Source: a virus (taxonomy: Duplodnaviria > Heunggongvirae > Uroviricota > Caudoviricetes). From it: a DNA stretch of 36,312 nucleotides. This document shows, one piece after another, positions 1-3,967 of this stretch. The translations under genes and the position numbers were made by a program. Position 1 is the first letter of the stretch, and each line of letters opens with the position of its first letter. The stretch is taken from the IMG/VR virus record IMGVR_UViG_2534681604_000004. One strand, 5' to 3'. The notes beneath the pieces are model-generated. The model did not search any database. It was not told the DNA's origin and saw nothing but the letters and a program-made list of their open reading frames with translations.

Positions 1-424
1 GCCGGGCAGTGACGTCATCGTCTGCGCGGAAATGGACGAACAGTGGGGATACGTCGGGGCTAAATCGCGCCAGCGCTGGCTGTTTTACGCGTATGACAGG
101 CTCCGGAAGACGGTTGTTGCGCACGTATTCGGTGAACGCACTATGGCGACGCTGGGGCGTCTTATGAGCCTGCTGTCACCCTTTGACGTGGTGATATGAA
201 TGACGGATGGCTGGCCGCTGTATGAATCCCGCCTGAAGGGAAAGCTGCACGTAATCAGCAAGCGATATACGCAGCGAATTGAGCGGCATAACCTGAATCT
301 GAGGCAGCACCTGGCACGGCTGGGACGGAAGTCGCTGTCGTTCTCAAAATCGGTGGAGCTGCATGACAAAGTCATCGGGCATTATCTGAACATAAAACAC
401 TATCAATAAGTTGGAGTCATTACC
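1..424 (+). mobile_element. IS1-family insertion sequence, partial copy (3' portion; terminal inverted repeat ends at 424)
   Basis: Sequence matches recalled IS1 3' half; encodes InsB C-terminal region and ends with GTTGGAGTCATTACC, the reverse complement of the IS1 terminal repeat GGTAATGACTCCAAC. Confidence 0.92.
200..409 (+). CDS. insB: IS1 InsB transposase C-terminal fragment ([36 protein letters not shown]...IKHYQ)
   Basis: Track ORF; recognisable InsB C-terminus; an in-frame TGA at 197-199 precedes the Met where the recalled reference has TGG (Trp). Confidence 0.8.
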
Positions 425-631
425 CAGGCATGTGTACGATATGCCCAACCCTGTTTTTCAGGGGAGGCGCAACGTTATGCGGGGTTATGAACTCCTGGAT
501 GCGTAGCCTCCAGACAGAAAAAACCCTCGCCACAACGTTGCATGGAGGCAACCAGCGAGGGCATTCCTTATGTCTGAACAACAAGAGGATAGCCGCAAGC
601 AGTTGCTGTTGCAAGTGTGCGGAGCTTCGTA

Positions 632-1862: not shown

Positions 1863-2708
1863 ATGCTGGCTAAAGTCACTTTCCTGAGCTGTATAACGAT
1901 GAGCGATTTTACTTTTTCTGGCTATGAATTGGCCTGCTTTGTAACACACTCCGGTCTATCCCGTAGCGCCGGGCATATCCTGTCGCAATGTGCAAATCTC
2001 GCGGCAACAACCAGTGAATACTTCATTCACAAGCCTCACCGCCTGATCGCGGCAGAAACTGGTTATAGCCAATCAACCGTCGTTCGTGCATTCCGTGAAG
2101 CTGTAAACAAAGGAATCCTGTCTGTAGAGATTGTTATCGGCGATCACCGTGAACGTCGCGCTAACCTGTACCGGTTTACACCATCCTTTTTGGCCTTCGC
2201 ACAACAAGCCAAAAATGCGCTGATTGACAGCAAATTAAAGATCTCTTCAGCCGCAACCAAGGTTAAAGCTGTTCTCGCTAAGACATTGGCTTTATTTAAT
2301 TTTTTATCCACACCCCCATGTCAAAATGATACCCCCTCCCCCTGTCAGGATGACGTGGCAATAAAGAATAAGAAGTCACAAATTAAAAAAACAAAAAGAT
2401 CAGTTTCCGGCGGTACCGGAACGACCAGGCTCAAAAATTTGACTTCCTGGATCGCTGAGGCAAAAGCAAAGGCTGACAATCTGCGGTTATCCAAAAAACG
2501 CGCTCAAAAACATGAGTTCAAGCAGAAAGTAGAGGCGGCTGCGCGGAAATATGCTTACCTGAAGAACAAGCGTTCGCCTGATATTGGCGGGATATCAAAC
2601 TTCGATAATCTACCGCATTGCATGACGGTAAACGAAGCTCTTAATGCGGTTTTAGCCAAAAATAAAGATAACGAACAATGGGGTATACCGGCAGGATTCA
2701 GAGGGTGA
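1863..2708 (+). CDS. repL: RepL-like lytic replication protein, 281 aa
   Basis: Track ORF immediately downstream of kilA in the same orientation; length fits recalled P1 RepL. Confidence 0.65.
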   Translation: MLAKVTFLSCITMSDFTFSGYELACFVTHSGLSRSAGHILSQCANLAATTSEYFIHKPHRLIAAETGYSQSTVVRAFREAVNKGILSVEIVIGDHRERRANLYRFTPSFLAFAQQAKNALIDSKLKISSAATKVKAVLAKTLALFNFLSTPPCQNDTPSPCQDDVAIKNKKSQIKKTKRSVSGGTGTTRLKNLTSWIAEAKAKADNLRLSKKRAQKHEFKQKVEAAARKYAYLKNKRSPDIGGISNFDNLPHCMTVNEALNAVLAKNKDNEQWGIPAGFRG

Positions 2709-2758
2709 TAGATTGCTCTAATCTGGAGTCACCTGGCGTTTTCAGTTTGAGGTCGGAG

Positions 2759-3004
2759 ATGCAATCTGATTTTTTACAGTTAGCGATCGCTTTTGCAGGA
2801 TATGTTTGTATTGGCTTCTGTGTATACATGATCAGCCGAAAAATGCTTGTCGATATCGACCGCAAAGAACGAGCAGAGGAGATCTTAGTATGGATTTTCT
2901 TTTGCGCGGTCTGGCCATTAGGGATCATGTTTGCTGCAACATTTCTTCTGATGTGGATATTCACCCTTCCAGGTGATTTATATAGAAAAAAAGCCAGACA
3001 TTGA
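2759..3004 (+). CDS. small membrane protein (2 predicted TM helices), function unknown
   Basis: Internal ATG at 2759 preceded by GGAG; hydrophobic stretches AIAFAGYVCIGFCVYMI and IFFCAVWPLGIMFAATFLLMWIF. Confidence 0.4.
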   Translation: MQSDFLQLAIAFAGYVCIGFCVYMISRKMLVDIDRKERAEEILVWIFFCAVWPLGIMFAATFLLMWIFTLPGDLYRKKARH

Positions 3005-3127
3005 TACAATCGCTGCGGGTGCTTGAGGCTATCTGCTTCAGGCATTACCCGACAAGCAGATAGAAGAAAGCCCCAGATAACATTACGCGTCCTGCAAGAC
3101 GCTTAACATTAATCTGAGGCCATATCT

Positions 3128-3334
3128 ATGCTTAGCATACGTAGATTAGCCTCTTACCGACCAAAAGGTCAAGGAGAAGCAGGCTATGAAGCAGCAAAAA
3201 GCGATGTTAATCGCTCTGATCGTCATCTGTTTAACCGTCATTGTGACGGCATTGGTAACGAGGAAAGACCTCTGCGAGGTACGAATCCGAACCGGCCAGA
3301 CGGAGGTCACTGTCTTCACAGCCTACGAATCTGA
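3128..3334 (+). CDS. mok: mok-like overlapping reading frame of a hok/sok-type locus
   Basis: Track ORF that starts upstream of and overlaps the hok frame, as mok does in hok/sok. Confidence 0.45.
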   Translation: MLSIRRLASYRPKGQGEAGYEAAKSDVNRSDRHLFNRHCDGIGNEERPLRGTNPNRPDGGHCLHSLRI

Positions 3335-3341
3335 AAGGTAA
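3186..3341 (+). CDS. hok: Hok/Gef-family type I toxin, 51 aa
   Basis: Own translation MKQQKAMLIALIVICLTVIVTALVTRKDLCEVRIRTGQTEVTVFTAYESER, close to recalled Gef/HokC; GC hairpin GGCGGGGAGAGATCCCCGCC in the 3' UTR (3349-3368) in the position of a fold-back element. Confidence 0.85.
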   Translation: MKQQKAMLIALIVICLTVIVTALVTRKDLCEVRIRTGQTEVTVFTAYESER

Positions 3342-3413
3342 GAGACCTGGCGGGGAGAGATCCCCGCCACTCTTCGTGTGTCAGGTATCCTCAATGCACC
3401 CTTTCCTCTCCAA

Positions 3414-3440
3414 ATAAAAAAGCTCCCGAAGGAGCTTTAA
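3414..3440 (-). terminator. rho-independent terminator (AAAGCTCC CGAA GGAGCTTT; T-run on the minus strand)
   Basis: Perfect stem-loop followed on the minus strand by TTTTTATTT, immediately downstream of the minus-strand gene ending at 3458. Confidence 0.7.
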
Positions 3441-3457
3441 AATACAAGGGATGACTC

Positions 3458-3967
3458 TTAATCCCACTCAATCCAGTTGTAGACGATACGAAGTGACGGG
3501 CGCACAGCAGCAGTCACATCTTCGGTACTAAAGTCGATTGCATCACTGTAGATTTTGCAGTCCAACATTTCAATTGTTGTAGCAGCTTTTGTCACAGCGT
3601 TAACCCCAGAAGATTTGGATTCAGGGGTCGCAGCCATCGTGATATCAACATAGTCCTTCGCCGCAATGCGATCTTTAATGAACTGAAGAATATCGCCTTC
3701 GATAGTCTCCACGCACTGGACCTGGATTTCCCCAGAGTTTCGAATTGGTCCGTGCTGGTTGAACTTCACACCATTCGGACCATAGTCCTCCACATCCTCG
3801 CGAGTCATTTCAGGGATTTGCGACGTGCGAACCAGTACGTTGATATCTTCATAGCCTGCAAAAGTGAGCTGGAATTCAGAAGATACCAGTCGTTCGCCTT
3901 TGGCCGCGTTGGCAGTATAGCGGCCCTTAATAAATTTACGGTTTCCCTTAGTGTTATTGTGCCCCAT
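3458..3967 (-). CDS. phage virion protein, possibly tail-tube-like, 169 aa
   Basis: Track ORF in a tightly packed minus-strand structural operon; functional call is weak inference. Confidence 0.45.
   Translation of the reverse strand: MGHNNTKGNRKFIKGRYTANAAKGERLVSSEFQLTFAGYEDINVLVRTSQIPEMTREDVEDYGPNGVKFNQHGPIRNSGEIQVQCVETIEGDILQFIKDRIAAKDYVDITMAATPESKSSGVNAVTKAATTIEMLDCKIYSDAIDFSTEDVTAAVRPSLRIVYNWIEWD

Follow-up and report, generated by a model that had tools for sequence, protein, structure and literature searches.

A hok/mok/sok-type toxin–antitoxin locus in the variable repL–bplB interval of a P1-like phage-plasmid

Is the short toxin-like reading frame found between repL and the virion genes of a P1-like phage-plasmid one part of a complete type I toxin–antitoxin (TA) module, and does that module belong to the P1 backbone? 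The question is raised by a 36,312-nucleotide stretch of viral DNA (IMG/VR record IMGVR_UViG_2534681604_000004), referred to below in its entirety as the window, with positions counted from its first letter. A preliminary description, made from the letters of the sequence, had placed a hok/mok-type type I toxin locus at 3128–3341. This identification is borne out by Pfam, by a 111.7-bit match to Rfam family RF01794 and by a full set of classical elements. The interval covers both reading frames but proved too narrow; judged from the sequence, the functional locus spans the hok promoter (from 2983) to the fold-back inhibition element fbi (3389–3401), with a predicted mRNA end at about 3414. The identity of the locus is clear, and every sequence and structure element of such a module is intact. 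On the evidence below we are confident that 2983–3414 constitutes a hok/mok/sok type I module with all its parts, one that falls in the hokD/hokW subgroup, is situated in a variable slot between repL and bplB and probably acts by R1-like post-segregational killing. The locus is already known as a sequence, being a 100%-identical copy of DNA previously deposited and annotated hokD in hundreds of public relatives, and the TA family of which it is a member is among the best studied.

The toxin gene, hok, occupies 3186–3341 on the plus strand, is preceded by the Shine–Dalgarno (SD) sequence GGAG at 3173–3176 and encodes the 51-residue peptide MKQQKAMLIALIVICLTVIVTALVTRKDLCEVRIRTGQTEVTVFTAYESER. 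Its assignment to the Hok/Gef family, proposed in the preliminary description, was confirmed by a match to the entire Pfam profile HOK_GEF (PF01848; profile positions 1–42 of 42, E = 2.4e-22, 78.7 bits, cut-off 22) and, in a PHROGs search, to phrog_251, ‘MokW-like host killing’ (E = 4.9e-32). The size of the protein and its cysteines, Cys15 and Cys30, are those of Hok/Gef toxins. RefSeq/PGAP names the protein HokD (WP_001313475.1) in plasmids that are 100% identical to the window over 2600–3500. Scores with the NCBIfam Hok models fell under the cut-offs (49.5 bits vs 73), so it is RefSeq, rather than NCBIfam, that supports the name HokD. Cys30 is hard-coded, and the second disulfide position is Tyr47, whose TAC codon is followed by G (TACG, 3324–3327, plus strand), the arrangement found in TadA-edited Hok proteins. 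In HokC, HokD and HokE the TACG motif is subject to A-to-I editing by TadA, which replaces Tyr with Cys (PMC5630033, PMC12214031); by analogy, Tyr47 of the window protein may be converted to Cys in the same manner.

The mok-like frame noted earlier is likewise present. It runs from 3128 to 3334 on the plus strand (68 codons in the list of open reading frames, +1 relative to hok), begins 5′ of hok and has its own SD sequence, GAGG, at 3116–3119, 8 nucleotides before the ATG (3128–3130), as is typical of the family. From the mok ATG to that of hok, further 3′, the offset is 58 nucleotides; R1, with start positions of 116 for mok and 174 for hok, has an identical spacing (PMC9841398). Mok matched phrog_37205 (E = 6e-20), and searches of Pfam, PHROGs and NCBIfam returned no functional assignment for it.

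Evidence for the regulatory leader came from promoter, covariance-model and folding analyses of the hok strand. A promoter scan identified a hok/mok promoter at 2983–3010, with −35 TAGAAA (2983–2988), a 16-nucleotide spacer and the extended −10 TGaTACAAT (3002–3010); the −10 aligns with TAGAAT of phage 933W. Transcription is predicted to start at about 3017, which is position 1 of the Rfam match. The Rfam search that the preliminary description had recommended gave a full-length match to RF01794 at 3017–3191 (model positions 1–157 of 157, 111.7 bits, gathering score 59, E = 8e-25), in which the helices tac/ucb and SD/dcb are preserved, as expected for a hok leader. The match lies on the hok-sense strand, is 175 nucleotides long and ends near the hok start codon; what the family describes is therefore the leader of the hok mRNA. 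Its label in Rfam is ‘sok antitoxin’, and automated annotation that followed this label would assign Sok the wrong strand and an excessive length. A permissive Rfam scan of both strands of 2900–3500 revealed nothing credible apart from RF01794; a minus-strand ‘sok’ match at 2926–3074 (20 bits) was below threshold and was disregarded.

The full-length hok mRNA is predicted to extend from 3017, a 5′ end taken from the Rfam start and the promoter, to about 3414 (~398 nucleotides). Folding of 3017–3414 gave a minimum free energy (MFE) of −156.6 kcal/mol, with z = −7.3 relative to dinucleotide shuffles. In this fold the translational activator element tac (3017–3028, GGGUGCUUGAGG) pairs with fbi (3389–3401, CCUCAAUGCACCC) in a 12-bp helix, reproducing the long-range 5′–3′ pairing of hok mRNAs, and the mok SD is held by the anti-SD element ucb (AAGCCCC, 3068–3074). 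A closed form of this kind is known for R1 (PMC9841398). The leader inverted repeat reported earlier at about 3030–3065 appears in the same fold as leader hairpin 1, at 3029–3063. An alternative, open form, in which ucb is the partner of tac and the downstream element dcb (GCCUC, 3149–3153) that of the mok SD, is both the Rfam consensus structure and the MFE structure of a 144-nucleotide nascent leader. In shorter nascent RNAs and in 3′-truncated RNAs, tac pairs with 3036–3050, which resembles the metastable hairpin of R1 (PMC9841398). The GC hairpin previously placed at 3349–3368 is real; it forms a stem-loop at 3348–3369 with 9 of 9 bases complementary, and by analogy it presumably protects the 3′ end of the processed, truncated mRNA. 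We also considered it as the hok transcription terminator and rejected that role because the conserved fbi element comes after it. The probable end point of hok transcription is instead a hairpin at 3419–3438, AAAGCUCC-N4-GGAGCUUU, which was detected in a minus-strand terminator scan, lies in a region common to P1 and is the P1-backbone terminator of bplB, shared here by the two genes.

The energetic cost of forcing the open pairing was dependent on the 3′ end of the RNA. The cost was +10.8 kcal/mol for the full-length RNA, +6.3 kcal/mol for an RNA ending at 3380 and +1.8 kcal/mol for one ending at 3372, just past the GC stem-loop, a shift in the direction that the fbi model predicts.

The preliminary description had anticipated an antisense Sok-like RNA opposite 3100–3190, where none was visible by eye. 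A candidate was found by homology with the sokW misc_RNA of phage 933W (AF125520). Mapped through an alignment of 87.5% identity, it runs on the minus strand from 3136 to 3066 (~71 nucleotides), so that the expectation held for the RNA itself but not for its position. The predicted RNA is complementary to both the mok SD (3116–3119) and the mok AUG (3128–3130). A candidate promoter on the same strand occupies 3172–3143, with −35 TTGACC (3172–3167), an 18-nucleotide spacer and −10 TAATCT (3148–3143), and would direct initiation at about 3136. The 71-nucleotide RNA folds (−29.1 kcal/mol, z = −4.8) into a 15-nucleotide single-stranded 5′ tail, which contains the anti-AUG of mok, followed by a 26-bp terminator-like hairpin and CUUUC. 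As read from the sequence, then, the locus appears to possess the cis-antisense Sok of the family, with a promoter of its own, over the mok initiation region.

To assess conservation, a protein-guided scan of viral contigs, which yielded 80 loci, was combined with other fetched loci to give 65 unique modules of 81–100% identity, the window included. An intact 51-codon hok is present in 65 of 65, with only 10 protein variants, and TACGAA is unchanged in every one. The Sok promoter is also kept throughout, as TTGACC-18-TAATCT in P1-type loci and TTGCCT-17-TAACCT in lambdoid loci. When the closed structure was imposed on the alignment, 93.3% of cells formed standard pairs, compared with 35–44% when partners were slid by 1–3 columns; the 93.3% is biased upward, because the window supplied the structure that was tested. 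The covariation score and the double-sided changes lay above those of all 500 shuffles, and covariation was also higher than in every slid control. Compensatory changes were located in particular helices: two pairs in hairpin 1 (AU to GC or the reverse in 8 sequences, CG to UA or the reverse in 12), three in a long-range helix in which the surroundings of the mok start pair with the 3′ untranslated region, and one in the 3′ stem-loop, where 92% of cells are paired and six changes are one-sided. The tac/fbi helix forms all 12 of its pairs in all 65 loci (100% of cells); tac is invariant, and the only changes are from G-C to G-U. No variation at all was seen in ucb, the mok SD or dcb, which fits bases that serve two alternative pairings.

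By analogy with R1, transcription, mRNA processing, Sok expression, editing and killing may be pictured as follows. The extended −10 promoter would produce a stable mRNA of ~398 nucleotides in which tac is sequestered by fbi and the mok SD by ucb, so that the RNA is neither translated nor bound by Sok. Slow trimming of the 3′ end to the GC stem-loop would remove fbi and make the tac/ucb and mok SD/dcb pairings possible. As long as the plasmid is present, abundant, unstable Sok (3136 to 3066) would bind the opened mRNA over the mok SD and AUG and direct its cleavage by RNase III; once Sok had decayed, the open mRNA would be translated, with hok translation coupled to that of mok, and Hok would enter the inner membrane and kill the cell. 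For full toxicity the Tyr47 codon (TACG) may also have to be edited to Cys by TadA. Cells that have lost the plasmid would lose Sok first and be killed, and the module thus probably helps to keep the plasmid in the cell, as a second addiction system beside phd/doc. The plasmid pRHB38-C01_2, which is identical to the window over 2600–3500, also encodes phd/doc, making hok/sok the second addiction-type module in that plasmid. Within the window, phd/doc was not found by tblastn with presumed P1 Phd and Doc sequences as queries.

The surroundings of the module answer the second part of the question. The window represents a P1-like phage-plasmid with IS1 (1–425), kilA, repL (1863–2708), bplB, pmgG, gene 21 and a sheath gene, and its homology to P1 begins at about 875. 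Within the C1 operator Orlf (at ATTGCTCTAAT, immediately before a C), at about 2723, this homology breaks off, to resume at about 3416 at the bplB terminator hairpin. The break therefore delimits, in the alignment with NC_005856, a 692-bp cassette (2724–3415, plus strand) that carries orf81 and hok/mok/sok in place of ~1.8 kb of P1. In the reference P1 (NC_005856) and in P7, the genes between repL and bplB are rlfA-rlfB-pmgF; judged by syntenic presence in these two references, hok is not a P1-backbone gene, as the preliminary description had supposed. That description had offered to yield if no antisense RNA or promoter could be detected and hok occurred in all P1 relatives; a candidate for each was found, and P1 and P7 have other genes in the slot. 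The rlfA-rlfB-pmgF segment is one of eight hypervariable regions (variable region 5) across 77 P1-like phage-plasmids (PMC9603915), a comparison in which hok is not mentioned, and our literature search on hok in P1-like phage-plasmids found no paper discussing the pairing.

The word ‘extra’, used of the module at the outset, applies relative to the laboratory reference and fails for natural P1-like plasmids, where the hok allele predominates and already goes under the names hokD or MokW. Among PLSDB records, repL is present in 507; the intact repL-orf81-hok-bplB allele was found in 262 and the rlfA allele in 99, and the hok module at a coverage of at least 80% in 449. Among 5,426 complete E. 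coli genomes the corresponding numbers were 235 with the intact hok allele and 117 with the rlfA allele; related hok modules were found in 4,747 of these genomes, mostly on the chromosome. Since the hok allele is in the majority among natural P1-like plasmids, it is the laboratory references P1 and P7 that are the exception. Six phage entries submitted under the name P1 or as P1-like also contain the cassette, and in one of them the hok coding sequence is named ‘MokW’; MH422554, deposited as ‘Punavirus P1’, has the same cassette.

Outside P1-like elements, the closest well-annotated relative is hokW/mokW/sokW of the Stx2 phage 933W (AF125520), with 87.5% nucleotide identity over ~397 nucleotides. 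The hok module part of the cassette (397 bp, 3005–3401) is 81–91% identical to modules of many lambdoid, Rac and Stx prophages, and homology to the lambdoid modules stops at 3401. The order of elements is the same in 933W (tac, hairpins, mok, hok, 3′ hairpin, fbi), its annotated Sok has the corresponding location, and differences between the window Hok and lambdoid Hok are confined to a few C-terminal residues. The window differs from the 933W type in its Sok promoter, as described above, and in its flanks, which are the P1 genes repL and bplB. The P1-type allele also has one extra base 5′ of the hok SD (GGTCAAGG vs GG-CAAGG in lambdoid modules), which places mok, like that of R1, in the +1 frame (58 nucleotides, 68 codons), whereas lambdoid mok is in frame with hok (57 nucleotides, 70 codons). 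This in-frame arrangement, with its 57-nucleotide offset, was observed in 53 of 53 non-P1 unique modules (e.g. 933W 722–934), from which it follows that ‘MokW’ is an N-terminally extended Hok.

Over 50 residues the window Hok is ~96% identical to what we take to be the sequence of K-12 HokD (relF). It shares the Cys15, Cys30 and Tyr47(TACG) pattern of that protein (PMC12214031, PMC5630033). K-12 hokD is reported to be without some canonical components owing to genomic rearrangement (PMC12214031), in contrast to the window, where promoter, tac, ucb, mok, sok, dcb and fbi are all present. In architecture the locus is that of R1 hok/sok (parB), with the same named elements, an mRNA of ~398 nucleotides, a 58-nucleotide mok–hok offset, an antisense RNA over the mok initiation region, a 3′ stem-loop and fbi. 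Amino-acid identity to what is presumably the R1 Hok sequence is only ~42%; R1 Hok has 52 residues rather than 51, a Cys at the position of Tyr47, and as its carrier a conjugative IncFII plasmid rather than a phage-plasmid. The phd/doc system of P1 is comparable in its presumed role, in which the killing of cured cells stabilizes the plasmid prophage. It is, however, a type II (protein–protein) system, unrelated in sequence and mechanism, and is ~48 kb from hok in the sibling pRHB38-C01_2.

The wide distribution of near-identical modules in lambdoid and Stx prophages, where plasmid addiction is not needed, and the presence of phd/doc on the sibling plasmid pRHB38-C01_2 raise the possibility that the main selected role is defence. 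In that case, shut-off of host transcription by an infecting phage would lead to decay of Sok, and Hok would kill the infected cell (abortive infection or exclusion), protecting the clonal population. Pecota and Wood are said to have described, in 1996, the exclusion of T4 by R1 hok/sok. In a recent Hok survey (10.1101/2025.08.07.668861), hok is reported to be four-fold enriched in prophages and its authors raise a defence role, but no enrichment near defence systems was found there. The sequence does not separate defence from post-segregational killing, and both roles can coexist; we regard defence as the main selected role as rather unlikely.

Several observations weigh against R1-like killing by an intact module in the window. 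A consensus promoter scan of the minus strand, of the kind suggested in the preliminary description, found no Sok promoter; the −10 matches the consensus at 3 of 6 positions, so TTGACC-18-TAATCT was identified by hand and by homology. No independent covariation evidence comes from tac, fbi, ucb, SD or dcb, because these elements vary little or not at all. The MFE structure of 3′-truncated RNAs (ends at 3370–3380) is not the open form but retains a tac-proximal hairpin with the SD still on ucb, and the switch is accordingly supported as an energy shift only. Inactivity has been reported for hokD of E. coli K-12 and for further hok loci on chromosomes (PMC12214031, PMC5630033), and expression of, and killing by, this particular allele are matters that we infer by analogy. 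Finally, IS421 between the 3′ hairpin and fbi in many sibling plasmids implies that the module is dispensable. This IS4-like element (1,337 bp) is inserted inside the hok 3′ stem-loop in many P1-like plasmids (e.g. NZ_MG825379.1, 4361–5697), with a 12-bp target duplication that corresponds to window 3353–3364, GGGAGAGATCCC, within GGGG-N6-CCCC. Because the insertion parts fbi from the rest of the hok mRNA, the module in such plasmids should be deregulated or inactivated. The insertions are reminiscent of the IS elements that adjoin chromosomal hok loci.

These IS421 alleles, which sever fbi and are common in sibling plasmids, also fit a reading of the locus as a passenger, silent or in decay, complete in appearance but, like chromosomal hokD and hokC, too weakly toxic to matter, and persisting only by hitch-hiking in a recombination hot spot of P1-like plasmids. 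The slot is indeed hypervariable (PMC9603915), Tyr47 rather than Cys is hard-coded, the K-12 genes hokA, hokC, hokD and hokE are regarded as inactive, and editing of hokD mRNA reaches only ~6% (PMC12214031, PMC5630033). Against this reading, all regulatory elements are intact, including non-coding ones more than 370 nucleotides apart, the full 51-codon frame persists in each of the unique relatives with few protein variants, and helices are maintained by compensatory changes. Moreover, according to the Hok survey, diverse Hok homologues that were tested proved toxic whatever their location (10.1101/2025.08.07.668861). We therefore consider a passenger distinctly unlikely and retain R1-like post-segregational killing as the preferred explanation.

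The left junction of the cassette bears on two further possibilities. It falls inside monovalent Orlf/Op55 (window 2712–2723), of which only ATTGCTCTAAT(C) is kept, directly after the repL stop codon. On this basis the cassette might be more than a second addiction module and serve the lytic replicon region as an accessory that can be switched, in which read-through couples TadA-gated Hok to induction or to an abortive response, and in which recurrent fbi-severing IS421 insertions at the 3′ hairpin generate natural ‘regulated’ and ‘deregulated’ alleles; we rate this as highly unlikely. That hok is simply a lytic helper, raised on induction by C1-controlled kilA-repL read-through across the truncated Orlf and orf81 so as to assist membrane depolarization and lysis, is extremely improbable: the cassette does begin inside Orlf, directly after repL, and only a weak terminator-like hairpin (2961–2976) lies between repL/orf81 and hok, but hok comes with a promoter of its own and the usual regulatory layout, the module also functions in genomic contexts unrelated to this one, and an mRNA with a longer 5′ end would still be closed by fbi and ucb.

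The other gene of the cassette, orf81 (2759–3004, plus strand), encodes a predicted membrane protein of 81 residues (WP_002433487.1, a hypothetical protein in PGAP; phrog_3772, E = 4e-52), for which searches of Pfam, PHROGs and NCBIfam gave no functional assignment. The list of open reading frames gives a 108-residue version that starts at the ATG at 2678, within repL. Its stop codon (3002–3004) overlaps the TG of the hok extended −10. Among the fetched loci orf81 was seen only beside repL; it invariably accompanies hok in P1-type elements and does not occur in lambdoid hok loci. It is probably outside the TA mechanism.

The known hok/sok mechanism is unaltered by the window locus, and its practical value is modest. 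It does indicate that most natural P1-like phage-plasmids carry a second TA module, of type I, that laboratory P1 and P7 do not have. P1-like plasmids are increasingly noticed as carriers of extended-spectrum β-lactamase and other resistance genes, the hok module may aid their persistence, and it is worth considering in curing or stability experiments on such plasmids. Public annotation could also be improved: records give the hok coding sequence alone or label it ‘MokW’, mok and Sok are annotated in none of the P1-like records examined, and the strand of the Rfam ‘sok’ match, which is hok-sense, should not be taken as the strand of Sok.

Some other features of these elements were noted in passing. 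The IS1 at window 1–425, upstream of kilA, is partial and is 99.8% identical to IS1 of P1-related records. A sibling P1-like plasmid of E. fergusonii (NZ_CP057105.1, 28582–38934) carries narU, narH, narW and narI beside ISKpn26, adjoining phd/doc; such a nitrate reductase/transporter block is an unusual metabolic cargo for a phage-plasmid. Lastly, a tRNA gene lies at window 22733–22805 (plus strand; Rfam tRNA, 63 bits), and its anticodon loop, CUCAUAA (CAU), suggests a tRNA of the Met or Ile2 type; carriage of tRNA genes is known in P1-like phages.

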